A stretch of DNA of 32,000 bases from Mycolicibacterium smegmatis (GTDB lineage: Bacteria > Actinomycetota > Actinomycetes > Mycobacteriales > Mycobacteriaceae), in the NCBI RefSeq assembly GCF_001457595.1, contig NZ_LN831039.1:3120001-3152000 (forward strand). Reading direction: 5' to 3'. The notes beneath the pieces are model-generated. The model was not told the DNA's origin. It saw only the letters and a list, made by a program, of their open reading frames with translations, and made no database searches. This document shows positions 12,422 through 32,000 of the stretch, piece after piece (position 1 is the first letter of the stretch; every line of letters starts with the position of its first letter). The translations under genes and the position numbers were made by a program.

Positions 12422-12924
12422 CCGACCGGGTAGCGCGCGTCGCTGTAACGGCGCAGGTTGTTCAGGAAACGCTGGAACAGCCACGCCATCACGGGCCGGC
12501 CCAGCAGCATCCCCAAACGCCCGGCCGGGCCGCTCGGCTGGATCGCCATCACCCAGGTCAGGTGGCAGCCCTGCGGTGTGTCGACCACGCGGTAGTCCTC
12601 GGCGAACGCCGAGATGGCGCTCGACGTCGTGGTGTTGAACCGGAACGCCATGTGCGAGAACGGCTCCCAGGCGAGGAACTGCTCGTGTCCGACGATGTTG
12701 CCGCGCATGCGCACGGTGCGCGTGGTACCGACTCCGCGCGGTTGCGGACTGGTCCACTCCACGTCGGTGATCACCGTCGCCCACTTCGGCCACGACGTCT
12801 CGTCGGCCAGCACCTCGAACAACTGCTCGCCGGTGATCGCCAGGTCGACGGTGCTCACGAAGCGGAACGGGGCACGGTCGATGAAGTCGAGGTCGACGCG
12901 TTCACACTCGTAGGTCCGGGCCAT
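12418..12924 (-). CDS. SRPBCC (START/Bet v1-like, polyketide-cyclase-type) family protein
   Basis: 168 aa with the typical SRPBCC pattern: FEVLADETSWPKW, GVGTTRTV. Its stop shares the palindrome CTAG with the carboxylesterase stop at 12418-12421. Confidence 0.7.
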   Translation of the reverse strand: MARTYECERVDLDFIDRAPFRFVSTVDLAITGEQLFEVLADETSWPKWATVITDVEWTSPQPRGVGTTRTVRMRGNIVGHEQFLAWEPFSHMAFRFNTTTSSAISAFAEDYRVVDTPQGCHLTWVMAIQPSGPAGRLGMLLGRPVMAWLFQRFLNNLRRYSDARYPVG

Positions 12925-12955
12925 GAGTAGACACTGTAGGGGAAAGTGTCTACTC
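12925..12955. promoter_or_regulatory. 11-bp perfect inverted repeat directly abutting the SRPBCC start codon
   Basis: GAGTAGACACT (12925-12935), 9-nt spacer, AGTGTCTACTC (12945-12955). The left arm begins one base after the start codon at 12922-12924. Confidence 0.5.
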
Positions 12956-13009
12956 GGGGTCGCGATCGGTTGTTCGCCATCGCCACGTCGGCAGTGTGGA
13001 CCGACTCTC

Positions 13010-13023
13010 TAGACTGATCAGTC
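13010..13023 (+). promoter_or_regulatory. Candidate aspS promoter -10 (TAGACT) overlapping the 12-bp palindrome GACTGATCAGTC
   Basis: TAGACT at 13010-13015 fits TANNNT. The perfect palindrome GACTGATCAGTC is at 13012-13023. Both lie about 30-40 nt upstream of the aspS GTG, and AAGGAG follows at 13041-13046. Confidence 0.35.
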
Positions 13024-13052
13024 GTCCCACCCGTCTTCACAAGGAGTACTTC

Positions 13053-14849
13053 GTGCTGCGCACTCATGCCGCCGGTTCGTTGCGGCCCGCCGACGCCGGT
13101 CAGACGGTGACGTTGGCGGGATGGGTGGCGCGTCGCCGTGATCACGGCGGCGTCATCTTCATCGACCTGCGCGACGCGTCCGGGGTGTCGCAGGTGGTGT
13201 TCCGCGAGGGCGACGTCCTCGCGGCCGCGCACAGGCTGCGCGCCGAGTTCTGCGTCGCGGTGACCGGCGTCGTCGAGGTCCGTCCCGAGGGCAACGAGAA
13301 CCCCGAGATCCCCACCGGGCAGATCGAGGTCAACGCCACCGAGCTGACTGTGCTGGGCGAGAGCGCGCCGTTGCCGTTCCAGCTCGACGAGCAGGCCGGC
13401 GAGGAAGCGCGCCTGAAGTACCGCTACCTGGACCTGCGCCGCGAAGGCCCCGGCAACGCACTGCGGCTGCGGTCGAAGGTCAACGCCGCCGCACGGTCCG
13501 TGCTCGCCGAACACGACTTCGTCGAGATCGAGACCCCGACGCTGACGCGATCGACGCCCGAGGGCGCCCGCGACTTCCTGGTGCCCGCGCGCCTGCAGCC
13601 CGGCTCGTTCTACGCGCTGCCGCAGAGCCCGCAGCTGTTCAAGCAGCTGCTGATGGTCGCGGGCATGGAGCGCTACTACCAGATCGCACGCTGCTACCGC
13701 GACGAGGACTTCCGCGCCGATCGTCAGCCCGAGTTCACCCAGCTCGACATGGAGATGAGCTTCGTCGAGGCCGACGACGTCATCGCGATCTCCGAGCAGG
13801 TCCTCAAGGCCGTGTGGGCCACGATCGGCTACGACCTGCCGCTGCCGCTTCCGCGGATCAGCTACGAAGAGGCCATGCGCCGCTTCGGCTCCGACAAGCC
13901 CGATCTGCGCTTCGGCATCGAACTCGTCGAGTGCACCGAGTACTTCAAAGACACGACGTTCCGCGTTTTCCAGGCGCCGTACGTCGGCGCCGTCGTGATG
14001 CCCGGCGGCGCGTCGCAGCCCCGCCGCACGCTCGACGGCTGGCAGGAGTTCGCCAAGCAGCGCGGGCACAAGGGCCTGGCGTACGTGCTCGTCGGCGAGG
14101 ACGGAACCCTCGGCGGGCCGGTGGCCAAGAACCTGTCCGACGCCGAACGCGACGGGCTGGTCGCGCACGTCGGCGCCAACCCGGGTGACTGCATCTTCTT
14201 CGCGGCAGGTCCCGCCAAGGGTGCCCGCGCGCTGCTCGGCGCCACCCGCATCGAGATCGCCAAGCGCCTCGACCTCATCGACCCGAACGCCTGGGCGTTC
14301 ACCTGGGTGGTCGACTTCCCGATGTTCGAGGCCGCCGACGAGGCCACGGCCGCCGGTGACGTCGCCGTCGGCTCGGGCGCCTGGACCGCGATGCACCACG
14401 CGTTCACCGCGCCCAAGCCCGACTCCGTCGACACGTTCGACTCCGATCCCGGCAACGCGCTGTCCGACGCCTACGACATCGTGTGCAACGGCAACGAGAT
14501 CGGTGGCGGCTCGATCCGTATCCACCGCCGTGACATCCAGGAGCGGGTGTTCGCGATGATGGGCATCGATCACGACGAGGCCCAGGAGAAGTTCGGGTTC
14601 CTGCTCGACGCGTTCTCCTACGGCGCCCCGCCGCACGGCGGCATCGCGTTCGGCTGGGATCGCATCACCGCACTGCTCGCCGGGGTCGATTCGATCCGCG
14701 AGGTCATCGCGTTCCCCAAGTCCGGTGGCGGGGTCGACCCGCTGACCGACGCGCCCGCACCGATCACGCCGCAGCAGCGCAAGGAATCCGGGATCGACGC
14801 CAAACCCAGGGAAGACAAGCCGAAGGAAGACGCCAAGTCAAAGGCGTGA
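13053..14849 (+). CDS. aspS: Aspartate--tRNA ligase (aspartyl-tRNA synthetase, bacterial type)
   Basis: Class IIb aaRS motifs: [23 protein letters not shown] (OB fold), [18 protein letters not shown] (motif 2), [26 protein letters not shown] (motif 3). Start is GTG 13053, 6 nt after AAGGAG. The track ORF begins earlier at 12996. Confidence 0.97.
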
Positions 14850-15349: not shown

Positions 15350-16291
15350 TCAGTCGAAGAGCGCGCGCAGGCGCAGCAACTGCTCGTCGCGCCACAACAC
15401 GCGTGCGTCCCAGTCGTCGAGATCGAGCAGTTTGCGCCGTTGTGCGGTGGCCTCGGCCACGAGACCGGGTGTCCACGGGTCGTGCTGGCCGCGTTCGGCG
15501 CCCATGCGCTCATAGGCCGGCCCCATCTTCTCGGCGTGTGACGCCAGGCCGCCGCGCGTGTTGAGGTCGCTCGTCTCGAACGGCCCCATGAACGCCCACC
15601 GCCGGCCGAGACCGCTGCGCACCACCTCGTCGATGTCGTCGACGGTCGCGACGCCGTCACGCAGCAGGCAATAGGACTCCCGCAGCAGCGCACCCTGCAG
15701 CCGGTTGAAGACGAACCCCTCGACCTCCCTGCGTACCGGCACCGGACGCAGACCCGCCGTGCGGTAGACCGACATCGTGGTCTCGACGATCTCCGGCGCC
15801 GTGGCCGGTCCGGGCACCACCTCGATCACGGGCAGCAGATATGGCGGGTTGCCCGGATGTCCGACGAGCACACGCCTGGCCACGTCGGCGGGAAGGTCGG
15901 CAGACAACGTGCTCGGTACGATCGCCGAGGTCGAACTGGCCAGTGGCACAGAACCATCCGTGAGGGACGCCGCGTCGCGCAGCAAGGGCACCTTGATCTC
16001 GGCGCGTTCTGGTGCGCACTCCTGCACGAAGCCGGCGCCGGTGACCGTGTCCGGGAGTGAGGTGGTGAACCGGATCCGCTCGATGATGAGGTCCGGATCC
16101 TCGTCCAACTGGCCGAACGCCTGCAACTGATCGAGTCTGCGGGCGAGATCGGCGCCGGCGCGTGGGTGTGCGGTCGGATCCGGGTCGAACACCGCGACCG
16201 GAAAACCTCTGGTGGCGAACAGGATCGCGAAGGACACGCCGATCGAGCCGGCACCGAGCAGCGCTGCGGAGGTGGACTGGTGCGATTTCAT
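15350..16291 (-). CDS. 3-hydroxyacyl-CoA dehydrogenase family protein (lambda-crystallin / L-gulonate- or L-carnitine-dehydrogenase-like)
   Basis: N-terminal Rossmann motif LLGAGSIGVSFA. The HADH central region VGHPGNPPYLLPVIEVV is present. ATG at 16289-16291 forms an ATGA overlap with the upstream stop. GTG 16297 is the alternative start. Confidence 0.8.
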   Translation of the reverse strand: MKSHQSTSAALLGAGSIGVSFAILFATRGFPVAVFDPDPTAHPRAGADLARRLDQLQAFGQLDEDPDLIIERIRFTTSLPDTVTGAGFVQECAPERAEIKVPLLRDAASLTDGSVPLASSTSAIVPSTLSADLPADVARRVLVGHPGNPPYLLPVIEVVPGPATAPEIVETTMSVYRTAGLRPVPVRREVEGFVFNRLQGALLRESYCLLRDGVATVDDIDEVVRSGLGRRWAFMGPFETSDLNTRGGLASHAEKMGPAYERMGAERGQHDPWTPGLVAEATAQRRKLLDLDDWDARVLWRDEQLLRLRALFD

Positions 16292-17565
16292 CGCCACCAG
16301 GACCGGTCACCGTCGTAGCCACGTTCGAGTATGCCGCGCACCGTTTCCGCGGTCAGCTCGCGCGGATTGTTGGCGGTCAGCCGCGTGGCGAGCATGGCCT
16401 GCTCGGCGACGAAATCGAAGTCGCGCGGCTGCAGGCCGAGCGTGCGCAGGTCGAGCGGGGCACCGAGCGTTGCGAGGATCTCCTCGATCCGCTCGATGGC
16501 TTTCCGGGCCTGTGTCTCTTGCGGATCTGTTTCGCTCGCGACCCCGAAGATGCGCCCGATCTCGGCGAACTCGGGTACCCGCGTCGGCAGGTTGTAGCGC
16601 ATCACATATGGCAGCAACGCGCTGATGCCGAAGCCGTGCGGGGTGTGCGTGAGGTTCCCGATCGGCGACTGGATGGCGTGTGCACCTGCGGTGCCGGCGG
16701 TGTTGATGGCCATACCGGCGCAGTACGCGCCGAAGAGGGTGTCCGAGCGTGCCTGCAGATCACCGGGCCGCGACGCCACAGCGGGCAGGGAGGTGTCGAG
16801 CAGTGCCAGCCCGGTACGTGCGTACGTATCGGCCAGCAGGTTCTTGCCCGCGTAGAGCTTGGTCGCGAGGTCGTCCGGGCCCGGGTTCTTCGCGCGCCCG
16901 GTGAACGATTCGATCAGGTGTGACAGGGCGTCGGCACCCGCGGCCGCGGTCAACCCCGGCGGGCAGGTCAGGGTCAGTTCGGGGTCGATGACAGCGGCCG
17001 TGGCCTCCAGGTGTGGGCTCGCCACACCCACCTTCATGCTCTTGTCCTCGTCGTATATCACCGAGATGCAGGTCACCTCGGCGCCGGTGCCGCCCGTGGT
17101 GGGAACCGTGATCACCGGGCATCCCGGCCCGGGAACCAAGAATTCGCCGTAGTAGTCACGCACGTCGGCGCCGTGCGCGAGCACGACGGAGGCGATCTTT
17201 GCCAGGTCCATGCACGACCCCCCGCCGATCCCGACAATGACGTCGACATCCTCGCGGCGGAACCGCCCGGTGATCTCGGTGACGTTGCGCCGCGGCAGGT
17301 CCGGTTCGGTGCCCCCGTACACCTCGACGGCGACCCCGCATGCGGTCAATCCCTCGGTGATGACGGCGAATTCGGGACTGTCGGCCATGCGGGAATCGGT
17401 GATCATGAGCACCCGCTGCCCGATCGAGGAGACCAGGCGGGGGAGTTGTCTGCGCTGCCCGGGCCCGAACAGGACCGTGCCGGGTTGACGCAACAGGCCG
17501 AGCCCCAGGCTGTTCTCGGTGCGGTGCGTACCGGTCTGAAATGCGGTGACAACCGGGGTGTTCAT
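16288..17565 (-). CDS. Iron-containing (group III) alcohol dehydrogenase family
   Basis: GIGGGSCMDLAK (GGGS nucleotide motif), TTGGTGAEVT, and His-rich metal ligands (AHAIQSPIG, HTPHG). ATGA overlap with the upstream aldehyde dehydrogenase at 17562-17565. Confidence 0.9.
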   Translation of the reverse strand: MNTPVVTAFQTGTHRTENSLGLGLLRQPGTVLFGPGQRRQLPRLVSSIGQRVLMITDSRMADSPEFAVITEGLTACGVAVEVYGGTEPDLPRRNVTEITGRFRREDVDVIVGIGGGSCMDLAKIASVVLAHGADVRDYYGEFLVPGPGCPVITVPTTGGTGAEVTCISVIYDEDKSMKVGVASPHLEATAAVIDPELTLTCPPGLTAAAGADALSHLIESFTGRAKNPGPDDLATKLYAGKNLLADTYARTGLALLDTSLPAVASRPGDLQARSDTLFGAYCAGMAINTAGTAGAHAIQSPIGNLTHTPHGFGISALLPYVMRYNLPTRVPEFAEIGRIFGVASETDPQETQARKAIERIEEILATLGAPLDLRTLGLQPRDFDFVAEQAMLATRLTANNPRELTAETVRGILERGYDGDRSWWR

Positions 17566-19058
17566 GCCAGGCCTGCTTCCTCGTCGACGGTGAGCGCCAG
17601 GTACTTCGGCTCCAGATAGTCGTAGATCGCGTCGTGGCCGCCCTCGCGGCCGAGCCCGGACGCCTTCACGCCGCCGAACGCGGCGGCTGGGTCGGCCATG
17701 ATGCCCCGGTTGATGCCGACCATGCCGAAGTCCAGACGTTCCCCGACCGCCACCGCGCGCGACAGGTCACGGGTGAACACGTAGGCGGCGAGCCCGTACC
17801 GAGTGTCATTGGCGAACTCGATTGCCTCCGAAGTGGATTCGACCTGATAGATCGTGGCGACCGGGGCGAACAGTTCGCGGCTGCACAACTCGGTGGGGCG
17901 TCCGTTGACACGGAACACCGTCGGTGCGAAGAAGAACCCGTCGCCGGGCAGCGCGTTGCCGCCGGTCAGCAGCTCGGAGTCGAGCCCGCGCAGCGTGTCC
18001 ACCAACTCCGAGACCCCGTCGAGTTGCCGGGCCGAGATGATCGGTCCCACGTCGACGCCGTCGTCGAATCCGTTGCCTACGCGCAACTGCTCGGTGAGCG
18101 CCACGAAACGCTTGGTGAACTCCTCGGCGACCGCGCGGTGCACGATGATCCGGTTGGCGGCCACGCACGCCTGCCCGGCATTGCGGAACTTGCACACCAC
18201 GGCCTGCTTCGCGGCGAGTTCGACGTCGGCGTCCTCGAGCACGATGAACGGCCCGTCGCCGCCCAGTTCCATCGACGCGTTGAGGATCCCGGGCGCGGCC
18301 TGGGCGAGCAGCGTCGACCCCACGCCGGTGGAGCCCGTGAAGCTGATCTTGCGTAGCCGCGGATCGGCCATCAGCGCCGCGGACACCGCAGAGGACGACG
18401 TGGTGTGCACGAGGTTGACCACGCCGGCCGGGAAACCGGCCTCACGCAGCGTCTCGACGAACAACGCACAGGTGAGTGGGGTTTCCTTGGCGGATTTCAC
18501 GATCACCGGGCAACCGGCGGCCAGGGCCGCGCCCGCCTTGCGGGCGATCATCAACATCGGAAAGTTCCACGGGGTGATCAGCAGGGCCGGTCCGACCGGT
18601 TGGTGTGTGGTGACCACGCGGTAGCCGCCGTGGGATGCGGGCGCGTAGGTGCCGTGCAGGTGCGCGATCTGCTCGGTGTACCACAGGAAGAACTCGGCAC
18701 TGAGATTGAACTCGGCGCGTGATTCTGCCAATGGCTTACCGCTTTCGGCGGTCATCACCGCGGCGAACGCCTCGGCGCGTGAGCGCAGTAGGCGATACGC
18801 CTCGCCGAACAATCCGGCGCGGGCCCGCGGGGTGACGCGGCGCCACTCGTCGCGCACCGCGTGGGCGGCGTCGAGCGCCGCCAGCGCTTCGGCGGCACCG
18901 GCGTCGGACACATCCGCGATGTGCCCCGTGGTGGCCGGGTCGAGCACGGTGAACGTGGAATCCGTTGTGCGCCAGTCTCCACCGATGAACAAGCCGGTCG
19001 GTACGCGGTGACCGTGCACGGTCTCGACAGGGTGGGTGCTGGCCAGCGTGGTCGTCAT
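17562..19058 (-). CDS. NAD(P)+-dependent aldehyde dehydrogenase (succinate-semialdehyde-dehydrogenase-like)
   Basis: ALDH motifs: ITPWNFP, MELGGDGPFIV (catalytic Glu) and FRNAGQACVAANR (catalytic Cys). Start is ATG at 19056-19058 (MTTTLAS). The 47-codon upstream extension in the track ORF runs through AT-rich promoter DNA. Confidence 0.9.
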   Translation of the reverse strand: MTTTLASTHPVETVHGHRVPTGLFIGGDWRTTDSTFTVLDPATTGHIADVSDAGAAEALAALDAAHAVRDEWRRVTPRARAGLFGEAYRLLRSRAEAFAAVMTAESGKPLAESRAEFNLSAEFFLWYTEQIAHLHGTYAPASHGGYRVVTTHQPVGPALLITPWNFPMLMIARKAGAALAAGCPVIVKSAKETPLTCALFVETLREAGFPAGVVNLVHTTSSSAVSAALMADPRLRKISFTGSTGVGSTLLAQAAPGILNASMELGGDGPFIVLEDADVELAAKQAVVCKFRNAGQACVAANRIIVHRAVAEEFTKRFVALTEQLRVGNGFDDGVDVGPIISARQLDGVSELVDTLRGLDSELLTGGNALPGDGFFFAPTVFRVNGRPTELCSRELFAPVATIYQVESTSEAIEFANDTRYGLAAYVFTRDLSRAVAVGERLDFGMVGINRGIMADPAAAFGGVKASGLGREGGHDAIYDYLEPKYLALTVDEEAGLA

Positions 19059-19237
19059 GAAGCCCAAGCTAGGGCGGTCGGGGCGGTATCCGTCCGACTG
19101 CCTCTTTTTGAGACAGTTCAGGCGCTGACGCCAGATCCGATTACGGTAAACTTTGTGATCCAGATCGCACTGAAGCGCAGGTTCGACGCCCTCCGGCACG
19201 TCGGTTCAGCGGCGGAGTTCGCGTGACGCAAGGAGTG
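19059..19237. promoter_or_regulatory. Divergent control region between the ALDH operon and its putative regulator
   Basis: 179-bp gap with an AT-richer core. Imperfect inverted repeat: ACTGCCTC, ttttt, GAGACAGT (19097-19117, one mismatch). Direct repeat CCAGATC at 19131-19137 and 19160-19166. Odd palindrome TTACGGTAA at 19141-19149. Confidence 0.35.
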
Positions 19238-20959
19238 ATGGTGTCGACACGGCGCAACGAGGCCCGCATCGAGGACATCCGTGCTCAGTTCCTGACAGCG
19301 TCCGAGCCGGGCCGTGCCGTGCCGGCCGATCTGCTGGAGTCGTGGGTGCGGTCCAAGGCAGCCCTGGGGACACCGGCGAACGTCCGCGACGTGCCGCAGG
19401 TGGACGAGGATCTGCTCGACAACCACCTGGTGGAGATGTTCCAGGCGCCCATGGCGCGGGTCGCCGAGGATCTCGGTGGCTCGGGTATGGGCCTGCTGCT
19501 GGCCGACGCCGAGGGTCGGATCCTGCAGCGCTGGTCGCAGGACGCATCGGCGATGAGCCATCTCGACCGGCTCGGCACGGTCCGCGGTGCGGTCCTGGCC
19601 GAGGACACGGTAGGCACCAACGGCGTCGGCACGGTGATCGCGGCTGGCAAGAGCGTCCAGATCGCCGGTGCCGAACACTTCGCCGACATCTACCGCACCG
19701 CGGTGTGCACCGGGGCGCCGGTGTGGCATCCGCTTTCGGGCAAACTGCTCGCGGTGGTGACGGTGTCGACCATGCTCAGCGAACGCAGTGGCCTGCTCGT
19801 GCCGTTGACCAACTCCGTTGCTGCGCAACTCGAACAGCATGTGCTCGACGTGGCCCAGCCGGGCGCCCGCGCCATGCTCGCGGCGTTCCTGGAGTCCTCG
19901 GCCCGGCACGCCGGCCCGGTGGTGGCCTTCGGCCCCGACGGGCTGACGATGCGCAGCCGCCGCGCCGGCGAGCTCACGCAGACTGACGTCGACACCATCA
20001 ACCATCTGTGTGCGGGGCTGCGCCGCGATGTTCAGGTGACGGCCGAGTTGTCCGTGGGCCCGACGGTCATCGACGTCGCCGCACTCGACGGCGGCGCCGG
20101 GGTGGTCGCGGCGCTGCGTCCGGCCCCGAGATCGTCGGCCGCGCACAGCATTGCGTCGTCGTCGGCGCTGGTGGGGCAGTCGAAGTCATGGCGTGCCGTC
20201 GCGCACCGCGTCAGCAGGCACATCGCCACCCGCGAACCGATTCTGGTGGCGGGGGAGTTAGGCACCGGCAAGACCTCGCTCGCGCTCGGCCGGCCGTTCT
20301 CGGCCGGCGCAGCGGATACCGCGACGATCGTGCACGGGGCCGAACGGCAGATCGTCGGCGACCAGACCTGGTTGCAGCGCGTGGCCGACGCGGTCGAGGC
20401 GGGCCCGGTGGTGATCCGCGGGGCCGAGCACGTCGACGGCCACGTCCTGGCCGCGGTCCGGACCCTCATCGACGGGCAGCGGGGCACGACCCCGATCGTG
20501 CTCACCATGACGGCCGCGCTCAGGGCCGAGGCGGAATCGGCGGCCGGCCGGTTCGGGGTGCCCATGGTGTGGGTGCCGCCGCTGCGTGAACGTGTGTCCG
20601 ATATCGGTGTGTTGTGGAATTCCTTTGTCGCCCAGTGCTCGCCGGGCGCGCGCCTCCCGCTCGCGGACGCCGCGCGCCAGGCGCTGGAGGCCGCGGGGTG
20701 GCCGGGGAACCTGTCAGACCTGCGCGGTGCCGTCGACACCGTGCTGGCGTCGGGCAAGCGCGGCACGGTGCAGGTCGACGACCTGCCCGACACCCTGCGC
20801 AGCCGTCGCACCTGGACGCTGATGGAGCGCACCGAGATCGAGGCGATCCGGCGGGCCCTTCAGGAGGCAGATGGCAACCGATCCAAGGCGGCCGAACTGC
20901 TGGGCGTGTCCAGGGCGACGATCCACCGGAAGATGAAGACGTACCACCTTTCCGGCTGA
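19238..20959 (+). CDS. AcoR/NtrC-like regulator: GAF-type sensor, degenerate sigma-54-interaction AAA+ domain, Fis-type HTH
   Basis: AcoR-type GAF core: GTNGVGTVIAAGKSVQIAGAEHF..CTGAPVWHP. Walker A GELGTGKT is at 20252-20275. PPLRERVSDI is present, and the C-terminal HTH is NRSKAAELLGVSRATIHRKMK. Start is uncertain (GTG 19223, ATG 19238 or GTG 19241). AAGGAG at 19230-19235 favours 19238 or 19241. Confidence 0.85.
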   Translation: MVSTRRNEARIEDIRAQFLTASEPGRAVPADLLESWVRSKAALGTPANVRDVPQVDEDLLDNHLVEMFQAPMARVAEDLGGSGMGLLLADAEGRILQRWSQDASAMSHLDRLGTVRGAVLAEDTVGTNGVGTVIAAGKSVQIAGAEHFADIYRTAVCTGAPVWHPLSGKLLAVVTVSTMLSERSGLLVPLTNSVAAQLEQHVLDVAQPGARAMLAAFLESSARHAGPVVAFGPDGLTMRSRRAGELTQTDVDTINHLCAGLRRDVQVTAELSVGPTVIDVAALDGGAGVVAALRPAPRSSAAHSIASSSALVGQSKSWRAVAHRVSRHIATREPILVAGELGTGKTSLALGRPFSAGAADTATIVHGAERQIVGDQTWLQRVADAVEAGPVVIRGAEHVDGHVLAAVRTLIDGQRGTTPIVLTMTAALRAEAESAAGRFGVPMVWVPPLRERVSDIGVLWNSFVAQCSPGARLPLADAARQALEAAGWPGNLSDLRGAVDTVLASGKRGTVQVDDLPDTLRSRRTWTLMERTEIEAIRRALQEADGNRSKAAELLGVSRATIHRKMKTYHLSG

Positions 20960-20976
20960 CCGGTCGTGCGTCGGGC

Positions 20977-21708
20977 TCACTGGGCCAGGTATCCGCCGTC
21001 GATCACCAATTCCGAACCCGTGACGAAACTGGCTTCGTCAGAGGCCAGGAACACCACGCCGTTGGCGATCTCGTCAGGTGTGCCCGCGCGGCCCATGGGG
21101 GTCTGGCTCACGACATAGTCGTTGATGGTGGTTTCCTGTGCGTCGGTCAGCGGTGTGCGGATGAACCCGGGATGCACCGAGTTGACGCGCACATTGTCCT
21201 TGGCGTAACTGATCGCGGCACTCTTCGACATGTTGCGTACCGCACCCTTCGTGGCGTGGTAGGCGTGCGCGCCGGCCACCGCGGCCGAACCCCAGATCGA
21301 GGAGATGTTGATGATCGAACCGCCGTGCTGGGACACCATGTGCGGGATCACCGCGCGCATCCCGAGCCACGTGCCGGTCTGGTTGGTGGCGACCACGCGA
21401 TTCCACTCGGGCACTGTGAGTTCGTGCAGCCCCTGGTAGGCGATGATGCCCGCGTTGTTCACCAGCACGTCGATACGGCCATACCGTTCTACGGTTTCGG
21501 TGACCACCGAATCCCAGTCTTCTTCTGACGCAACATCGAGTTGGCGGTACTCGACTTCGGCCGAGCGCGGGCCCAGCGCCTCGTCGGTTTTCGACCGGCC
21601 CGTCGCGACCGTGATGGCGCCCTCGCGGGCCAGGGCATCGGCGATCGCGTGGCCGATTCCACGGCACGTACCGGTGACGATGGCGACCTTGCCGTCCAAT
21701 CGATTCAT
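20977..21708 (-). CDS. Short-chain dehydrogenase/reductase (classical SDR)
   Basis: TGTCRGIG (TGxxxGxG), NNAG, the Ser...YHATK catalytic set, and C-terminal GSELVIDGGY. Confidence 0.9.
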   Translation of the reverse strand: MNRLDGKVAIVTGTCRGIGHAIADALAREGAITVATGRSKTDEALGPRSAEVEYRQLDVASEEDWDSVVTETVERYGRIDVLVNNAGIIAYQGLHELTVPEWNRVVATNQTGTWLGMRAVIPHMVSQHGGSIINISSIWGSAAVAGAHAYHATKGAVRNMSKSAAISYAKDNVRVNSVHPGFIRTPLTDAQETTINDYVVSQTPMGRAGTPDEIANGVVFLASDEASFVTGSELVIDGGYLAQ

Positions 21709-21854
21709 CTCGACTGCCTTTCTGTGATGAACATCTGGGGTTCAGGCAACGGGATTGCTGCACCGGGTCGTGGTGGTGGATCACAGTGATACAGGCGTGC
21801 GTCATTTTGCGACACCATGGCAACGGTCTGGTGACGGCGCACACACTTGCGCCC

Positions 21855-22772
21855 ATGTCGATAAACCAACCGAATGACCCTCTGGGCGTCATCTATGCCG
21901 AATGGACCGAAGAGTTCGTCGCCAACCCGGACATGTCGCTGCGCCTCATGCGGTGGGTGTTCGAGGATTGGCAACGCGTCACGTCCGAACCAGAAGACGT
22001 CACCTATGCGTCGACCCGGATCGGTGGTGTGCCAGGCATTCTCGTCAAGCCACTCGACGCCGATCCCGGGCAGATGCTGGTTGTGCTGCACGGCGGCGGG
22101 TTCGCGCTCGGATCGTCGGCGAGCCACCGCAAACTGGCCGGGCACCTGGCTCGCGCGTTCGGCGCGCACGCTTTCGTCGCCGACTTCCGGCTTGCTCCCG
22201 AACACCCGTATCCCGCACAGATCGACGATGCGACAGCCGTTTTCACCTCGCTCCTCGACAATGGCATCGACGCGAGCAGCATCACTTTCGTGGGGGACAG
22301 CGCCGGCGCCAGCATCGCCGTCGCCACCACGTTGCGCCTGTTGCGCGACGGGGCGCCCGTGCCGGGCCGCGTCATCACGATCTCGCCGTGGCTCGACATG
22401 GAGAACAGCGGCAGCACCATCGAGTCCAACGACGCCACCGACTTCCTCATCACGCGGGAGGGCCTGCAGGGCAACATCGACCGCTACCTGTCGGGCGGCG
22501 CATCGCCGACCGACCCGCTGGTGAACCCGCTCTACGCCGATTTCACCGGCTTCCCACGGCTGTACATCACGGTGTCCGACACCGAATCGCTGTACGCCGA
22601 CGCCACGAGACTCGCCGAGAAGGCACGTGCCGCGGGTGTCGACGTGACGTTCGAGGTGGCGTCCGGGCAGCAGCACGTCTTCCCGCTGCAGGCCGGAGTG
22701 CTGCCCGAGGCCGACGCTGCGATCGAGTCGATGGCGGCCTGGTACCGCTCCGCCAAACCCCTTGCCGTCTGA
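21855..22772 (+). CDS. Alpha/beta-hydrolase esterase, hormone-sensitive-lipase (family IV) type
   Basis: Oxyanion-hole motif LHGGGFALGS and nucleophile elbow GDSAGAS. Start is taken as ATG 21855 (MSINQPN). No clear SD, and in-frame GTG codons exist upstream (21786, 21831). Confidence 0.85.
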   Translation: MSINQPNDPLGVIYAEWTEEFVANPDMSLRLMRWVFEDWQRVTSEPEDVTYASTRIGGVPGILVKPLDADPGQMLVVLHGGGFALGSSASHRKLAGHLARAFGAHAFVADFRLAPEHPYPAQIDDATAVFTSLLDNGIDASSITFVGDSAGASIAVATTLRLLRDGAPVPGRVITISPWLDMENSGSTIESNDATDFLITREGLQGNIDRYLSGGASPTDPLVNPLYADFTGFPRLYITVSDTESLYADATRLAEKARAAGVDVTFEVASGQQHVFPLQAGVLPEADAAIESMAAWYRSAKPLAV

Positions 22773-22788
22773 ACGCGAAGGACCTGAC

Positions 22789-24435
22789 ATGCACCAGAAC
22801 ACGGCCAACGACTTCGAAACATTCGACGCGATCGTCATCGGCGCCGGATTCTCCGGTTTGGCGATCCTGCACCACCTGCGCGAGATCGGCCTGCGCACCG
22901 TGGTGCTCGACGCGCAGGACGGTATCGGCGGGACCTGGTGGGCCAACCGGTATCCCGGCGTGCGCACCGACAGCGAATACAGCTACTACTCGTTCTCGTT
23001 CTCGAAGGAAGTTCGCGAGGAATGGACGTGGTCGCAGCGCTACCCTGCGGGCCAGGAGGTGCTCGACTACCTCAACTTCGTGGCCGACCGCCTGGATCTG
23101 CGTCGCGACATCCGCCTCGGTGTCCGTGTCGATTCGGCACGCTACGACGAACCCGCCAACCGCTGGGTCGTCACCACCACCGACGGCGTGGAACTGACCA
23201 CGAAGTACCTCATCAGCGGTATGGGTGTGCTCTCGCAGTCGATCTACCCGGACATCCCGGGTATCGAGACGTTCGCCGGCGCGAGGTACCACACCGCCCA
23301 CTGGCCGCGTGACGGCGTCGACCTCGCGGGCAAGCGGGTAGGTCTGATCGGACTCGGCGCGTCGGGCATTCAGGTGGTGCCGACGATCGCACCGGAGGTC
23401 GCCGAACTCGTGGTGTTCCAACGCACCCCGAACTTCGTGGTCGAGACCACCAACGATCCCGTGACGCCCGAGCAGATGCAGTGGCTGCGTGAGAACTACG
23501 ACACGGTGTTCGAGAAGGCCGCCAACCACCCGTTCGGGGTCGCGATGGAACCCGCACAGTTCAGCGCACTCGAGGTCGACGACGACGAACGCCGACGCAT
23601 CTTCGAAGCGAAGTGGAACGAGGGCGGATTCCACTTCGCCAACGAGTGTTTCAACGACCTGGCCACCAACCACCAGGCCAGCGAGCTCGCCTCGGAATTC
23701 ATCCGGTCCAAGATCCGCGAGATCGTCAAGGATCCCGCGACCGCGGATCTGCTGTGCCCCAAGGACTATTCCTTCAACGGCAAGCGCGTCCCCACCGGTC
23801 ACGGCTACTACGATGCGTTCAACCTCGACCACGTGCGCCTCGTCGACGTGGCATCACAACCCATCACGGAGATCACACCGCACGGCGTCAAGGTGGGGGA
23901 GCGCGAATACGAACTCGACGTGTTGATCTTCGCGACCGGATTCGACGCCATGACCGGCACACTCACCTTCATCGACATCATCGGGCGCGACGGGATCACG
24001 TTGCGCGGCAGGTGGGCCCGCGACGGGCTACGGTCGAACCTGGGGATCGGCGTGCACGGGTTCCCGAACTTCTTCATGTCCCTCGGCCCGCAGACGCCGT
24101 ACTCCAACCTGGTGGTCCCCATCCAGCTTGGCGCGCAATGGCTACAGCGCGCCATCCGCTGGGCCGAGGACAACGGGGTGGACCGGCTGGAGGCCACGCG
24201 GGAATCCGAAGAGTGGTGGGCCGAGGAGACCGAACGTGCCGGCAAGGCCACGGTGATGTACACCGAGGGCAAGAAGGCCAAGGCGTGGTTCCTCGGCGAG
24301 AACGTGCCAGGCAAGCCCGAGGCCTTCCTGGTGTACATGGGGGGTGGGCAGGTCTACCAGCAGTACTGCCGTGAGGTCGAGCAGAGCGGCTACGCGTCGT
24401 TCCTGGCGGGTGCTCTCGTCGGCGACGCCGTCTGA
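22789..24435 (+). CDS. Type I Baeyer-Villiger monooxygenase (FAD/NADPH dependent)
   Basis: GAGFSGL FAD Rossmann motif, GGTWWANRYPG, BVMO fingerprint FAGARYHTAHWP (FxGxxxHxxxWP), and a second Rossmann GLGASGIQ. ATG 22789 lies 6 nt after GAAGGA. Confidence 0.92.
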   Translation: MHQNTANDFETFDAIVIGAGFSGLAILHHLREIGLRTVVLDAQDGIGGTWWANRYPGVRTDSEYSYYSFSFSKEVREEWTWSQRYPAGQEVLDYLNFVADRLDLRRDIRLGVRVDSARYDEPANRWVVTTTDGVELTTKYLISGMGVLSQSIYPDIPGIETFAGARYHTAHWPRDGVDLAGKRVGLIGLGASGIQVVPTIAPEVAELVVFQRTPNFVVETTNDPVTPEQMQWLRENYDTVFEKAANHPFGVAMEPAQFSALEVDDDERRRIFEAKWNEGGFHFANECFNDLATNHQASELASEFIRSKIREIVKDPATADLLCPKDYSFNGKRVPTGHGYYDAFNLDHVRLVDVASQPITEITPHGVKVGEREYELDVLIFATGFDAMTGTLTFIDIIGRDGITLRGRWARDGLRSNLGIGVHGFPNFFMSLGPQTPYSNLVVPIQLGAQWLQRAIRWAEDNGVDRLEATRESEEWWAEETERAGKATVMYTEGKKAKAWFLGENVPGKPEAFLVYMGGGQVYQQYCREVEQSGYASFLAGALVGDAV

Positions 24436-27543: not shown

Positions 27544-27697
27544 CCGAAGTTGCCCGTCCCTTCACCGGTTGGCTCACCGCCGCCTTCGACGCTGCGGTGC
27601 CGCTCCCACCGTACGGGCCAACCAGCCGAATTCCCCGCGAGCGGGTGAGGATGTCGCGTGCGATGCGCGCACCTGAACCTTGTGATGGGATTTGCGG

Positions 27698-30600
27698 ATG
27701 GGTATCAAAGTGGCGCTGGAGCACCGCACCAGCTACACGTTCGACCGGCTCGTCGAGATCCATCCGCATGTCGTGCGGCTGCGTCCGGCGCCGCACTGCC
27801 GCACGCCCATCGATGCGTATTCGCTCACGGTCGAACCGGCCGATCACTTCATCAACTGGCAGCAGGATGCGTTCGGAAACCATATGGCGCGCTTGGTGTT
27901 CCCCAATCGGGCGCGCGAACTCACCGTGACCGTCGGTCTGATCGCCGACCTCAAGGTGATCAACCCGTTCGACTTCTTCATCGAGGACTACGCCGAGACG
28001 GTCCCGTTCGAGTACCCCCGTGCACTGCGCGAAGATCTCAAGCCCTATCTGCGCCCGGTCGACGAGGGCGCCGAGGGCTCGGGTCCGGGTGAACTGTGCG
28101 CCGCCTGGGTGAGCAATTTCACGATGCCGCCGGGGACCGCGACGATCCAGTTCCTGGTGGCGCTCAACCAGGCCGTCAACGCCGATGTCGGCTACAGCGT
28201 CCGCATGGAGGCGGGCGTGCAGACGCCCGACCACACGTTGCGCACGGGCATCGGATCATGCCGTGACTCGGCCTGGCTGCTGGTGTCCATCCTGCGGCAA
28301 CTCGGGTTCGCGGCGCGGTTCGTCTCGGGATACCTCGTCCAGCTCACCTCCGACGTGGAAGCGCTCGACGGACCGTCGGGACCCGCGGCCGACTTCACCG
28401 ACCTGCACGCCTGGACCGAGGTCTACATACCCGGCGCCGGGTGGATCGGCCTCGACCCCACCTCGGGACTGTTCGCCGGGGAGGGACACATCCCGCTGTC
28501 GGCGACGCCGCATCCGGAGTCGGCCGCGCCGGTCACCGGCGCGACCGGGGTCTGTGAGGCCTCCCTGGAGTTCTCCAACGTGGTCACCCGCGTACACGAG
28601 GACCCGCGGGTGACGCTGCCGTACACCGACGCCGCGTGGGCATCGATCGTGGACCTCGGCGGCCGCGTCGACAGGCGTCTGGCCGACGCCGACGTGCGCC
28701 TCACGATGGGCGGCGAACCGACGTTCGTCTCGATCGACAACCAGGTCGACCCCGAGTGGACCACCGACGCCGACGGACCGCACAAGCGCGAACGCGCCTC
28801 GGCGCTGGCCGCCCGGCTCAAGAACGTCTGGGCGCCAGGCGGACTCGTACAACGCAGCCAGGGCAAGTGGTATCCCGGTGAACCCCTGCCGCGGTGGCAG
28901 ATCGCGCTGTACTGGCGCACCGACGGCCTGCCGCTGTGGACCGACGCGGAACTGCTGGCCGATCCGTGGTCCGGCAAGACCCGCGAGGTCGCCCCCGATG
29001 CGGCCGAGCGTCTGCTGTCGGAGATCGCGGCCGGCCTCGGCCTGCCGGGCACCCAGGTGCGGCCGGCGTTCGAGGATCCGCTGAGCCGGCTGGCGGCCGC
29101 CGTGCGACTGCCTGCCGGTGACCCGGTGGGCGCCGACGAGGATCTGGCCGAGGACGGCGCCGACGCCAGGGCGGAGCTGCTGGCGCGCCTCGAGTCGCCG
29201 GTCGACGCGCCTGCCGCGCACGTACTTCCGCTGCACCGCGCCGACGACGGAACGGGCTGGGCGAGCGCGGACTGGCGGCTGCGGCGCGGCCGCATCGTAT
29301 TGCTCGACGGGGATTCGCCCGCAGGGCTTCGTCTGCCGCTGAACTCGATCAGCTGGCAGCCGCCGCGGCCGTCGTTCGAGGCCGACCCGCTGGCGGTGGA
29401 CACAGACACCGAACCGGCGCCCGGACGACGGACCGCGACCGTCGTCGACGCCGACGGTGCCCCCACCACCGCGCTGGTCGCCGAGATCCGCGACGGGCTG
29501 CTCTACGTCTTCCTGCCGCCCACCGCGGAGCTCGACGACTTCCTCGACCTCGTCGCGCGCGTCGAGGCCGCCGCGGCCGCCGTCGGTGTGCCCGTCGTCG
29601 TCGAGGGATACGGCCCGCCCACCGACCCACGGATCACCTCGACGACCATCACGCCCGACCCGGGCGTCATCGAGGTCAACGTGGCCCCCACGGCGAGCTT
29701 CGGCGAGCAGAACAAGCAGTTGGAGACCCTCTACGAGCAGGCCCGCCTGGCGCGGCTGTCCACCGAGTCGTTCGACGTCGACGGCACCCACAGCGGGACC
29801 GGCGGTGGCAACCACATCACGCTGGGCGGCATCACCCCGGCCGACTCACCGCTGTTGCGGCGCCCCGACCTGTTGGTCTCACTGCTGACCTACTGGCAGC
29901 GCCACCCCGCGCTGTCGTATCTGTTCGCGGGACGGTTCATCGGAACCACATCGCAGGCACCGCGCGTGGACGAGGGGCGCGCCGAGGCGCTCTACGAACT
30001 GGAGATCGCGTTCGCCGAGATCGCCCGACTCACCGCTACCGACGCCCCACAGCCGTGGGTCCTCGACCGCGCGCTGCGCCATCTGCTGACCGACATCACC
30101 GGCAACACCCACCGCGCGGAGTTCTGCATCGACAAGCTCTACAGTCCCGACGGCGCCCGCGGCCGCCTCGGCCTGCTGGAGCTGCGCGGCTTCGAGATGC
30201 CGCCGCACCACCAGATGGCGATGGTGCAGGCGCTGCTCGTCCGGTCGCTGGTGGCGTGGTTCTGGGACGAACCGCTGCGCGCCCCGCTGATCCGGCACGG
30301 GGCCAACCTGCACGGCCGATACCTGCTGCCGCACTTTCTGATTCGCGACATCGCCGACGTCGCGGCGGACCTGCGTGCGCACGGCATCGACTTCTTGACC
30401 AGCTGGCTCGACCCCTTCACCGAGTTTCGTTTCCCGCGGATCGGGACCGCGGTGTTCGACGGTGTCGAACTCGAACTGCGCGGCGCGATCGAACCGTGGA
30501 ACGTGCTGGGGGAGGAGTCGACGGCCGGCGGCACCGCGCGTTACGTCGACTCGTCGGTCGAGCGCATCCAGGTGCGCCTCGTGGGCGCCGATCGGGACCG

Positions 30601-31006
30601 CTACGTCGTGACGGCCAACGGCCATCCGATCCCGCTGCTTGCCACCGAGAAATCCGACGTGCAGGTGGGTGGCGTGCGGTACCGCGCGTGGCAGCCGCCC
30701 AGCGCTCTGCACCCGTCGATCACCGTCGACGGCCCGCTGCGGTTCGAGCTGATCGACACGGCAACCGGCACGTCAAAGGGCGGCTGCACGTACCACATCG
30801 TGCATCCGGGCGGCCGGTCCTACGACACCTCGCCGGTCAACGCGGTCGAGGCGGAATCGCGGCGCGGCCGCCGCTTCGAGGTCATCGGTTTCACGCCAGG
30901 AAAAGTGGACATGTCCGTCATTCGGGAGCGGCAGGCGCGCCAGTCCACCGATGTGGGTGCACCGGGGATTCTCGATCTGCGCCGGGTGCGTACCGTTCTT
31001 CGTTGA
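27698..31006 (+). CDS. Large transglutaminase-fold thiol peptidase/transferase with a C-terminal DUF2126 region (Rv2566-like)
   Basis: Bact_transglu_N-type start: MGIKVALEHRTSYTFDRLVEIHPHVVRLRPAP. Cys-His-Asp triad context: GIGSCRDSAWL (Cys codon 28259-28261), DLHAWTEVYIPG, GWIGLDPTSG. A roughly 750-aa extension follows. ATG 27698 is preferred over TTG 27692. Confidence 0.9.
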   Translation: MGIKVALEHRTSYTFDRLVEIHPHVVRLRPAPHCRTPIDAYSLTVEPADHFINWQQDAFGNHMARLVFPNRARELTVTVGLIADLKVINPFDFFIEDYAETVPFEYPRALREDLKPYLRPVDEGAEGSGPGELCAAWVSNFTMPPGTATIQFLVALNQAVNADVGYSVRMEAGVQTPDHTLRTGIGSCRDSAWLLVSILRQLGFAARFVSGYLVQLTSDVEALDGPSGPAADFTDLHAWTEVYIPGAGWIGLDPTSGLFAGEGHIPLSATPHPESAAPVTGATGVCEASLEFSNVVTRVHEDPRVTLPYTDAAWASIVDLGGRVDRRLADADVRLTMGGEPTFVSIDNQVDPEWTTDADGPHKRERASALAARLKNVWAPGGLVQRSQGKWYPGEPLPRWQIALYWRTDGLPLWTDAELLADPWSGKTREVAPDAAERLLSEIAAGLGLPGTQVRPAFEDPLSRLAAAVRLPAGDPVGADEDLAEDGADARAELLARLESPVDAPAAHVLPLHRADDGTGWASADWRLRRGRIVLLDGDSPAGLRLPLNSISWQPPRPSFEADPLAVDTDTEPAPGRRTATVVDADGAPTTALVAEIRDGLLYVFLPPTAELDDFLDLVARVEAAAAAVGVPVVVEGYGPPTDPRITSTTITPDPGVIEVNVAPTASFGEQNKQLETLYEQARLARLSTESFDVDGTHSGTGGGNHITLGGITPADSPLLRRPDLLVSLLTYWQRHPALSYLFAGRFIGTTSQAPRVDEGRAEALYELEIAFAEIARLTATDAPQPWVLDRALRHLLTDITGNTHRAEFCIDKLYSPDGARGRLGLLELRGFEMPPHHQMAMVQALLVRSLVAWFWDEPLRAPLIRHGANLHGRYLLPHFLIRDIADVAADLRAHGIDFLTSWLDPFTEFRFPRIGTAVFDGVELELRGAIEPWNVLGEESTAGGTARYVDSSVERIQVRLVGADRDRYVVTANGHPIPLLATEKSDVQVGGVRYRAWQPPSALHPSITVDGPLRFELIDTATGTSKGGCTYHIVHPGGRSYDTSPVNAVEAESRRGRRFEVIGFTPGKVDMSVIRERQARQSTDVGAPGILDLRRVRTVLR

Positions 31007-32000
31007 TGGTTCTACGCGCGAACGGCTCCCAGCCCACCTCGACCGCCGGCGCCGCCGGCGATCTCGGTGCGGGCTCCGACGTCTCAGGCGCCCCCGGTAT
31101 CCGGGATGTCGACGGAGTGCTCGAGAAGTACCGCCGCACCCGCCTGCAGCGGGCGCTGTTCGACGTGCGGGGTTCACAGGCCGGCACGGCCTACGACGAG
31201 TTCGTCGACACGGCGGGCGAGGTCCGCCCCGCATGGCGTGAGCTGGCCGAGTGTGTCTCCGAGCGCGGACGTTCCGGCCTCGACCGCCTGCGCGAACAGG
31301 TCAACGCCCTGGTCGACGCCGACGGCATCACCTACATCCAGGTCGACCGCCACGGTGAGATCGTCATCGACCGCGAGGGCGCCGCGATGCCGGGACCTTG
31401 GCATCTCGACGCGCTGCCGATGGTGATCTCCGCCGAAGAATGGGACGTGCTGGAGGCCGGCCTGGTGCAGCGTTCACGTCTGCTCGACGCAGTGCTGGCC
31501 GATCTGTACGGCGAGCGCCGCTCGATCACCAGTGGCGTGCTCCCGGCGCAGTTGCTGTTCTCCCATCCCGGCTATCTGCGGGCCGCCCACGGCATCACGG
31601 TGCCGGGTCGTCACCAATTGTTCCTGCACGGGTGTGACATCAGCCGCGGCGACGACGGCGCGTTCGTGGTCAACGCCGACTGGACCCAGGCCCCTTCCGG
31701 CGCCGGTTACGCACTGGCCGACCGGCGCGTCATCGCCCATGCGGTCTCGGAACTGTACGAGCGCATCGCGCCGCGGCCGGTGTCGCCATGGGCGCAGGCC
31801 CTACGCCTGGCCCTGATCGACGTCGCACCCGAATCCGCCGAGGAACCGGTGGTCGTGGTGCTGAGCCCCGGCATCCACTCGGAGACCGCGTTCGACCAGG
31901 CCTATCTGGCGGGCGTGCTCGGCTTCCCGCTGGTGGAGAGCGCCGATCTGGTGGTCCGCGACGGCAAGCTGTGGATGCGGTCGCTGGGCACCCTCAAACG
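31006..32000 (+). CDS. Circularly permuted type-2 ATP-grasp protein (Rv2567-like), 5' part only, continues past the window
   Basis: This frame is not in the ORF track because it has no stop before 32000. My own translation from ATG 31006 gives MVLRANGS...YDEFVDTAGEVRPAWRELAE...GPWHLDALPMVISAEEWDVLEAGLVQRSRLLDAVLADLYGE...NADWTQAPSGAGYALADRR...LGFPLVESADLVVRDGKLWMRSLGTLK. The start overlaps the preceding stop as TGATG (31004-31008). Confidence 0.85.
   Translation, partial: MVLRANGSQPTSTAGAAGDLGAGSDVSGAPGIRDVDGVLEKYRRTRLQRALFDVRGSQAGTAYDEFVDTAGEVRPAWRELAECVSERGRSGLDRLREQVNALVDADGITYIQVDRHGEIVIDREGAAMPGPWHLDALPMVISAEEWDVLEAGLVQRSRLLDAVLADLYGERRSITSGVLPAQLLFSHPGYLRAAHGITVPGRHQLFLHGCDISRGDDGAFVVNADWTQAPSGAGYALADRRVIAHAVSELYERIAPRPVSPWAQALRLALIDVAPESAEEPVVVVLSPGIHSETAFDQAYLAGVLGFPLVESADLVVRDGKLWMRSLGTLK

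Follow-up and report, generated by a model that had tools for sequence, protein, structure and literature searches.

Organization of the Operon

The DNA analysed here is a stretch of 32,000 nucleotides from Mycolicibacterium smegmatis (contig NZ_LN831039.1, positions 3,120,001 to 3,152,000 of the forward strand), which is referred to below as the window. Its right-hand end carries the first two genes, and thus the 5' end, of the four-gene operon MSMEG_3016-3019. This locus is the actinobacterial form of a widespread system in which a circularly permuted ATP-grasp protein (cpATP-grasp), an alpha-E domain, and transglutaminase-like peptidases occur together. The composition of the operon and its assignment to this family can be regarded as practically certain. 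The family itself was predicted in 2008-2009 and is not novel as a kind. The features that lie inside the window are collected in Table 1.

Table 1. Features at the 5' end of the operon, in window coordinates
Feature	Position	Strand	Basis or remark
Conserved upstream block TGC(G), at a fixed 13-14 nt from the -10-like element	27664..27667	+	TGC invariant in 20/20 mycobacterial loci, G in at least 90%
Extended -10-like element TGaTGGGAT (TG at -15/-14, TGGGAT at -12 to -7 relative to the transcription start site)	27683..27691	+	No canonical ANNNT
Transcription start site, the A of the gene 1 ATG (leaderless mRNA)	27698	+	Martini 2019 Table S7
Gene 1 (MSMEG_3016; Rv2566 equivalent)	27698..31006	+	Open reading frame, 1102 aa from ATG; Pfam domains
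Bact_transglu_N, residues 6-82	27713..27943	+	Pfam 9e-24
Transglut_core papain-fold domain, residues 146-254	28133..28459	+	Pfam 3e-18
Catalytic triad codons C188, H237, D253	28259-28261, 28406-28408, 28454-28456	+	
DUF2126 region, residues 285-1095	28550..30982	+	Pfam PF09899 E=0, 1164 bits, profile 2-826/826
Gly-rich motif G700-T-G-G-G-N-H706	29795..29815	+	Kept in 27-31/35 relatives
TGATG stop/start overlap of genes 1 and 2, with TTG at 31003 as another possible in-frame start	31004..31008	+	
Gene 2 (MSMEG_3017; Rv2567 equivalent), codons 1-331 of 904	31006..32000	+	Pfam; open at the window end

The remainder of the operon was read from a public M. smegmatis contig (L002), which is identical to the window across 14,303 shared bases. 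Genes 2-4 span L002:13309-17961. The continuation of gene 2, whose alpha-E half lies past the window end, was taken from L002 13309-16023. The locus tags were assigned through the supplementary tables of two papers, and the gene 1 protein occurs unchanged in M. smegmatis genomes. The four genes point in the same direction, the stop of each of the first three overlaps the start of the next, and they are co-transcribed. The TGA of gene 1 (31004-31006) and the ATG of gene 2 (31006-31008) share 1 nt, or 4 nt if the TTG start is used, in agreement with the overlap described in a first-pass annotation of the window, which had been made from the letters alone. A further in-frame TTG is present at 27692, 5' of the gene 1 ATG. 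The ATG at 27698 is taken as the start of gene 1 because the mapped transcription start site (TSS) coincides with it. Directly 3' of gene 4, the operon probably ends at a 21-bp perfect inverted repeat without a U tract (L002:17980-18036; dG -52.7 kcal/mol, z -6.4). On either side, the neighbourhood between aspS and alaS presumably corresponds to the Rv2572c-Rv2555c region of M. tuberculosis. No Rfam family matched within the window.

Transglutaminase-Like Module of Gene 1

The first-pass annotation had described gene 1 as a protein of 1102 aa with a Bact_transglu_N-type N-terminus, an intact Cys/His/Asp context, and a very large C-terminal extension. All three statements hold. The N-terminal domain matches its Pfam family (Table 1), and the extension is a full-length DUF2126 region. 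The triad residues C188, H237, and D253 sit in the segments GSCRDSAW, HAWTEVY, and GLDPTSG, respectively. They align with the Cys/His/Asp of TgpA of P. aeruginosa (6g49) at the same spacings of +44 and +60, and also with the corresponding residues of gene 3, the small transglutaminase of the operon. The catalytic residues of TgpA are Cys404, His448, and Asp464. Residues 1-285 of gene 1 form a paralogue of gene 3 (25% identity, E 1e-14), and in the Foldseek comparison of the whole gene 1 model, this module was placed on PDB 3isr with an E of 1e-13 and a template-modelling (TM) score of 0.75. NCBIfam has no model for the gene 1 protein or the gene 2 protein.

Among 29 diverse full-length relatives, Asp253 is kept in all, His237 in 28, and Cys188 in 24. 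In the five distant relatives that lack the cysteine (P0197, P0217, P0219, P0233, P0250), it is replaced by H, P, A, D, or A. These proteins are possibly pseudoenzymes; an alignment error is the alternative. Several of them are also devoid of the DUF2126 motif G-T-G-G-G-x-H.

The DUF2126 Region and Its Predicted Fold

The DUF2126 region contains about 40 well-conserved polar residues, with R545, H736, S740, R756, and E759 being invariant. Its Gly-rich G-x-G-G-G-x-H motif appears reminiscent of the nucleotide/metal signature of glutamine synthetase (GS). AlphaFold (AF2) modelled the whole of gene 1 with a predicted local distance difference test (pLDDT) of 87 and a predicted TM score (pTM) of 0.86. 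In the Foldseek list for this model, transglutaminase matches dominated, with a run of weak GS matches besides. Because the list of the whole protein was ruled by transglutaminases, a model of DUF2126 alone was built (pLDDT 87, pTM 0.88). The best match of this second model was E. coli YbdK (1r8g, E 3e-3, prob 0.99). It was followed by gamma-glutamylmethylamide synthetases (GmaS) and then by more than 20 GS entries, with a very weak match to Dop lower in the list (E 0.31). The list consists almost wholly of YbdK, GmaS, GS, and Dop, with scores that are weak and consistent. The model comparison proposed alongside the first-pass annotation thus gives weak support to a GS/GCS2-type fold, and DUF2126 is predicted to be a carboxylate-amine ligase core of this type with extra domains, including a C-terminal beta-sandwich. 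In Iyer 2008 (PMC2588565), Rv2566 is the type member of the family in which a transglutaminase-like domain is joined to a carboxylate-amine ligase.

No relative of DUF2126, alpha-E, or Peptidase_Mx was found among solved structures. Six clusters (P0205, P0216, P0228, P0230, P0231, P0238) hold seemingly standalone DUF2126 proteins of ~770-840 aa, which match from residue ~285 and are devoid of the transglutaminase N-terminus.

Genes 2, 3, and 4

The gene that follows gene 1 had been predicted to be a circularly permuted ATP-grasp protein from the part that is open to the window end (31006-32000). This part indeed matches CP_ATPgrasp_1 (3e-73) and CP_ATPgrasp_2 (1e-68), each match being truncated where the window stops. 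The full protein of 904 aa is a cpATP-grasp (CP_ATPgrasp_2 1.7e-127) to which Alpha-E is fused at residues 564-884 (1.6e-67). Its ATP-grasp half matches PDB 3n6x with an E of 9e-64. With these results, all of the suggested profile searches (Bact_transglu_N, Transglut_core, DUF2126, CP_ATPgrasp_2, and Alpha-E) returned matches. Both predictions for the downstream sequence were borne out: ATP-grasp and alpha-E form one protein, and the next gene encodes a small transglutaminase. In Martini 2019, a 5' end on the minus strand falls within MSMEG_3017 (L002 about 14772; genome 3089554), which may be an antisense TSS within gene 2.

Gene 3 encodes 306 aa with Bact_transglu_N and Transglut_core, overlaps gene 2 by 4 nt, and also matches PDB 3isr. 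Its Cys and His are kept in every complete copy. Gene 4, with an 8-nt overlap, encodes 342 aa with Zn_ribbon_DZR_6 and Peptidase_Mx and carries an HEIGH motif; the HExxH is kept in 32/32 complete copies. PADLOC had no match for any of the four operon proteins, and a known anti-phage defence system was rejected on this ground. Three elements are new relative to the first-pass annotation: the fourth gene with its Peptidase_Mx, the regulation by nitrogen starvation, and the 2024 claim about Rv2569c, both discussed below.

Distribution and Gene Neighbourhood

A word-indexed search for homologues yielded mycobacterial proteins only, at 81-88% identity. This is too shallow for an analysis of conservation, and therefore an exhaustive search of representatives and genome loci were used. 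The DUF2126 protein is present in 2,276 clusters at 50% identity (E <= 1e-30), and relatives are encoded in 579/600 scanned stretches from contigs of one genome per species. Even in Proteobacteria, Bacteroidota, Acidobacteriota, and Poribacteria, identity across the DUF2126 part remains at about 50%. The components of the operon were mapped in the 80 best loci, 63 of which had enough flank. In every one of these 63, a cpATP-grasp gene lies within 10 kb of the giant gene, and in 59, both a fused ATP-grasp/alpha-E and a small transglutaminase are present. Peptidase_Mx accompanies them in 28/32 loci of Actinomycetota and almost nowhere else. Of 31 non-actinobacterial loci, 19 have an additional cpATP-grasp that is not fused and is usually accompanied by an alpha-E gene of its own.

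When the other open reading frames (ORFs) of the neighbourhood were clustered, a single further recurrent partner emerged. This proteasome-like partner is Anbu, as judged from its match to solved structures of that protein (5.5e-64). The Anbu gene adjoins the giant gene in 11 loci, all of them non-actinobacterial, in agreement with the statement of the first-pass annotation that the trio accompanies Anbu in other phyla. In Actinobacteria, the position that Anbu holds elsewhere is taken by Peptidase_Mx. In a group of six loci, no transglutaminase-like protein other than the giant one was found; it lies beside unfused cpATP-grasp (and alpha-E) genes and there takes the place of the separate transglutaminase gene of the canonical Anbu operon. 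The locus is identified with the Iyer-Aravind system because of this shared set of components, including Anbu beside the giant gene in other phyla. The gene association given in the first-pass annotation agrees with Iyer 2008 (PMC2588565) and with the Yersinia Anbu paper (PMC6376114), which credits Iyer 2009 with the ATP-grasp/alpha-E/transglutaminase/Anbu operon. The clustering of neighbour ORFs showed no conserved transporter, oxidoreductase, or aminotransferase with the system in any phylum.

Some proteobacterial operons carry insertions. These include a glutaminase-like gene in Gallionella (L036:12521-13435), a citrate synthase gene that separates genes 1 and 2 in methanotrophs (L058-L060 about 12600-13950), and a ParA-like P-loop ATPase before the second transglutaminase or Anbu (L042:16269-16964). 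The citrate synthase, glutaminase, ParA-like ATPase, and a cyclase were rejected as core members and are considered lineage-specific gap fillers. The Peptidase_Mx gene in L010:16029-17043 and gene 1 in L031:9136-13110 are split into several frames; these broken copies are pseudogenes or errors in metagenome-assembled genomes. In seven mycobacterial loci, including that of M. szulgai (L012, L013, L014, L015, L020, L031, L039), the cassette of the small transglutaminase and Peptidase_Mx is inverted relative to genes 1 and 2.

The distribution of the system bears on a quite different view, according to which the transglutaminase-like proteins are exported virulence proteases and the operon does not encode a cytosolic ligase/peptidase system. 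It derives from a 2024 paper in which Rv2569c, likely the M. tuberculosis counterpart of gene 3 as judged from the shared fold class and operon position, was described as a serine protease with E-cadherin among its substrates. Phenylmethylsulfonyl fluoride (PMSF) and 4-(2-aminoethyl)benzenesulfonyl fluoride (AEBSF) abolished this activity, and E-64 and N-ethylmaleimide (NEM) did not. The claim is doubtful because the fold is of the Cys/His/Asp type and the inhibition is of the serine type, and because the paper presents no site-directed mutant of the active site and no inactive control. Signal-peptide analysis is likewise absent from it, and genes 1 and 3, as read from their sequences, have no hydrophobic N-terminal signal. 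The system is also tied to ATP-dependent enzymes, which must be cytosolic, and Rv2569c lies on a separately transcribed inverted cassette. The claim also cannot account for the conservation of the system in saprophytes of soil and sea from different phyla. Export as virulence proteases is thus considered highly improbable.

Promoter and Response to Nitrogen

The mRNA of gene 1 is leaderless and is read from a conserved non-canonical promoter. Martini 2019 Table S7 places the TSS of MSMEG_3016 at 3084783 (+), at a distance of 0 to the gene, and files it under the alternative 'promoter motif #2', which is free of ANNNT. The promoter, TGC(G)-N13-TTGTGATGGGAT, is common to 20 mycobacterial loci and ends 6-9 nt 5' of the start codon; the columns T.TG.TG..AT are invariant in the alignment of these loci. 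A scan with the sigma-70 consensus found no promoter for gene 1. A CRP-like reading of the TGTGA-N5-TCA upstream of gene 1 was rejected for its wrong spacing, and readings of the region as a GlnR box, an AmtR box, or a SigF promoter were rejected by eye.

Published expression data link the operon to nitrogen. In Williams 2013, MSMEG_3016 rose 12.7x and 11.0x at ammonium run-out, which is similar to the value for P-II in that table. The increase was about 2.1x for MSMEG_3017 and MSMEG_3018, and gene 4 (MSMEG_3019) is not listed. The difference within overlapping genes could possibly reflect attenuation, processing, or probe effects of the array. It also bears on the 1:1 stoichiometry of the first two proteins, which had been thought probable from the stop/start overlap. 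This idea is weakened because gene 1 is induced 11-13x (about 12x) and gene 2 about 2x, and because the overlap is a lineage trait, present in 22/38 actinobacterial loci and in 1/23 others.

In Jenkins 2013, MSMEG_3016 was 2.8x higher in the wild type than in the glnR mutant. Its expression is GlnR-dependent, yet there is no GlnR peak in chromatin immunoprecipitation (ChIP). Kindred systems respond to nitrogen as well. In M. tuberculosis under nitrogen stress, Rv2566 rose 2.05x and 2.34x and Rv2569c remained flat; the paralogous trio Rv2409c-2411c was induced in a GlnR-dependent manner. The main text of that paper is silent on the responses of Rv2566 and Rv2409c-2411c. The Anbu operon of P. 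putida was 16-22x higher on nitrate than on ammonium. A role of the system in nitrogen starvation is therefore considered likely.

The timing of this response is important for one further explanation. The system could make a non-ribosomal amino-acid polymer, similar to cyanophycin or poly-gamma-glutamate, with backbone synthesis assigned to one ligase, the attachment of side-chain amides to the other, and breakdown of the product to the hydrolases. Two mechanistically different ATP-dependent amide ligases and dedicated peptidases are indeed combined in one nitrogen-regulated system. Cyanophycin synthetase and cyanophycinase follow the same logic of ligase and peptidase. However, induction occurs when nitrogen runs out and not when it is in excess, and this speaks against a polymer because run-out is the wrong time to build a nitrogen-rich store. 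The four operon proteins contain no Mur-ligase-type domain according to Pfam, and such a polymer is not known from mycobacteria. A polymer is accordingly judged quite unlikely.

Predicted Function and Possible Substrates

The interpretation offered in the first-pass annotation, an amide-ligase and peptidase system, is supported by the analysis. The annotation further suggested that the pair may make and trim a peptide-like metabolite or a protein tag. In such a system, the two ligases, one of the ATP-grasp type and one GS/GCS2-like, would each spend ATP to turn a carboxylate into an acyl-phosphate and join it to an amine. The bonds would most likely be of the gamma-glutamyl or isopeptide type and would be formed on peptides or proteins. 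Trimming, reversal, or degradation of the product would then fall to the two thiol hydrolase/transamidase modules and the metallopeptidase, so that the whole system might serve protein or peptide remodelling and the recycling of nitrogen during nitrogen starvation.

Peptides or proteins are tentatively preferred as the substrates, with a confidence slightly below even, because the partners of the ligases are peptidases (elsewhere a proteasome homologue), no conserved transporter or redox enzyme is present, and the proteins are very large. The scavenging of nitrogen from small molecules, or their biosynthesis, is rather unlikely in comparison. In this case, the target of both the GS/GCS2-like domain and the ATP-grasp would be a free amine or amino acid, to which they would attach a gamma-glutamyl or other acyl group, with analogues in the Puu pathway, GmaS, Streptomyces GlnA2-4, and the glutathionylspermidine and ergothioneine pathways. 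The papain-fold modules and the metallopeptidase would be amidohydrolases that free nitrogen or finish a peptide-like metabolite. As a sub-variant, gene 1 could be an amidotransferase in which the transglutaminase module would work as a glutaminase and supply the ligase domain with ammonia. Such a pathway would suit the best fold matches of DUF2126, which are the small-molecule ligases YbdK, gamma-glutamylmethylamide synthetase, and GS, and the deposition of 3n6x, the relative of gene 2, as a 'putative glutathionylspermidine synthase'. The induction of the operon along with nitrogen-scavenging genes, the glutaminase-like gene inside the operon in the one Gallionella locus, and the lack of a conserved tag ORF point in the same direction. 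Unlike known gamma-glutamylation pathways, however, the system has no conserved transporter, oxidoreductase, or aminotransferase. Its partners are a proteasome homologue or an HExxH peptidase, and its proteins are very large and multi-domain. Moreover, Rv2567 and Rv2411c made no gamma-aminobutyric acid (GABA)-trehalose, which is one candidate product only, when they were assayed for its synthesis in a 2026 preprint.

A more specific proposal can be made, although it must be regarded as improbable. Gene 1 would be a single-polypeptide analogue of Dop and PafA within a Pup-independent system that marks and dismantles proteins and recycles their amino-acid nitrogen in starvation. The transglutaminase module would deamidate glutamine, or transfer glutamine or a glutamyl group, and the GS/GCS2-like domain would phosphorylate the glutamyl carboxylate and link it to lysine or another amine. 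The ATP-grasp/alpha-E protein, the second transglutaminase, and Peptidase_Mx (Anbu elsewhere) would complete the system, which would be read from its dedicated leaderless promoter.

Several observations weigh against the reading as an amide-ligase and peptidase system acting on peptides or proteins. The fold match of DUF2126 is weak (TM 0.25-0.36, E no better than 3e-3). A PDB profile search returned transglutaminase structures only and no GS/GCS2 sequence link, and a permissive Pfam scan of DUF2126 segments returned only DUF2126 itself, with no Gln-synt_C, GCS2, or Pup_ligase. Thiol chemistry is apparently not always required because five distant lineages are without the catalytic Cys. No conserved Pup-like tag ORF was seen near the operon among neighbour ORFs of at least 90 aa, and the operon itself leaves no room for one because its genes overlap; Iyer 2008 (PMC2588565) likewise reports no Pup-like ORF alongside Rv2566-type genes. 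In the Yersinia study (PMC6376114), Anbu had no peptidase activity in vitro, and no stable complex formed among the Anbu-operon proteins. As for regulation, MSMEG_3016 is missing from the GlnR ChIP targets in Jenkins 2013 Table S2, and the M. smegmatis nitrogen datasets of Petridis 2015 and Jessberger 2013 do not list the operon genes. Finally, none of the members of the system has a known substrate, product, or phenotype.

The absence of a defined substrate or product for Rv2566/Rv2567, as stated in the first-pass annotation, still holds; the literature contains no paper that assigns either, and the GABA-trehalose assay of Rv2567 was negative. No published ATP-dependent amide ligase assay was found for Rv2566-type proteins, and a full-text literature search gave no match for DUF2126 or for MSMEG_3014-3019. 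The system, with or without Anbu, is spread over a large part of the bacterial phyla, occurs in M. tuberculosis as well, and has been a prediction of comparative genomics alone for more than 15 years. The M. smegmatis locus is its version in a fast-growing and genetically tractable model organism. Public data that were apparently unconnected show that gene 1 is strongly induced at nitrogen run-out and that its leaderless non-canonical promoter is conserved across mycobacteria; the M. tuberculosis orthologue and the Pseudomonas Anbu operon respond to nitrogen likewise. Together, these data provide a defined condition and strain, and therefore an old question becomes directly testable. If a protein-marking or nitrogen-recycling pathway parallel to pupylation is indeed present, it would matter for the physiology of mycobacterial persistence.

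Comparison with Related Systems

The closest counterpart is the set Rv2566/Rv2567/Rv2568c/Rv2569c of M. tuberculosis, which has the same domain set, the same aspS-alaS neighbourhood, and a nitrogen-induced Rv2566. In contrast to M. smegmatis, slow-growing mycobacteria have the small transglutaminase/Mx cassette inverted and separately transcribed, as seen in M. szulgai and the six other loci. The Anbu operon of Proteobacteria, Cyanobacteria, and Bacteroidota also brings cpATP-grasp, alpha-E, and a transglutaminase-like peptidase together and is induced by nitrogen limitation. The Yersinia version is a four-gene operon for which induction in nitrogen starvation is cited and whose ATP-grasp frees Pi from ATP (PMC6376114). 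The M. smegmatis locus differs in having no Anbu, in the fusion of ATP-grasp and alpha-E, and in the addition of the giant transglutaminase-DUF2126 protein and a terminal Zn-ribbon/HExxH Peptidase_Mx.

The Pup system aids the recycling of amino acids in nitrogen-starved M. smegmatis. Its enzymes PafA and Dop pair a deamidase/isopeptidase with a gamma-glutamyl ligase, which resembles the pairing of the transglutaminase module with DUF2126. According to Iyer 2008 (PMC2588565), they belong to the same carboxylate-amine ligase superfamily, and Dop is found in the DUF2126 fold list. However, the operon has no Pup-like small ORF, the match of DUF2126 to Dop is very weak (see above), the hydrolytic partner is papain-fold instead of GS-fold, and the additional ATP-grasp/alpha-E and Mx proteins have no place in that system. 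YbdK (GCS2), GmaS, and GS are the best structural matches of the DUF2126 core. They differ from DUF2126, which has about 800 residues with additional domains, no sequence match to them, and the low TM scores already given. The remaining structural relatives, 3isr (a putative cysteine protease of Cytophaga hutchinsonii) and 3n6x, are structural-genomics deposits for which no associated function turned up.

Upstream Genes

A separate cluster is situated upstream of the operon (window 16288-24435, MSMEG_3006-3011). It encodes an iron-containing alcohol dehydrogenase, an aldehyde dehydrogenase, a MimR-like activator, a short-chain dehydrogenase/reductase, a hydrolase, and a Baeyer-Villiger monooxygenase that is similar to flavin-containing monooxygenases. 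Under nitrogen limitation, in the comparison of the wild type with the glnR mutant, MSMEG_3006/3007 were 2.5-4.3x lower and MSMEG_3011 was 2.2x higher.

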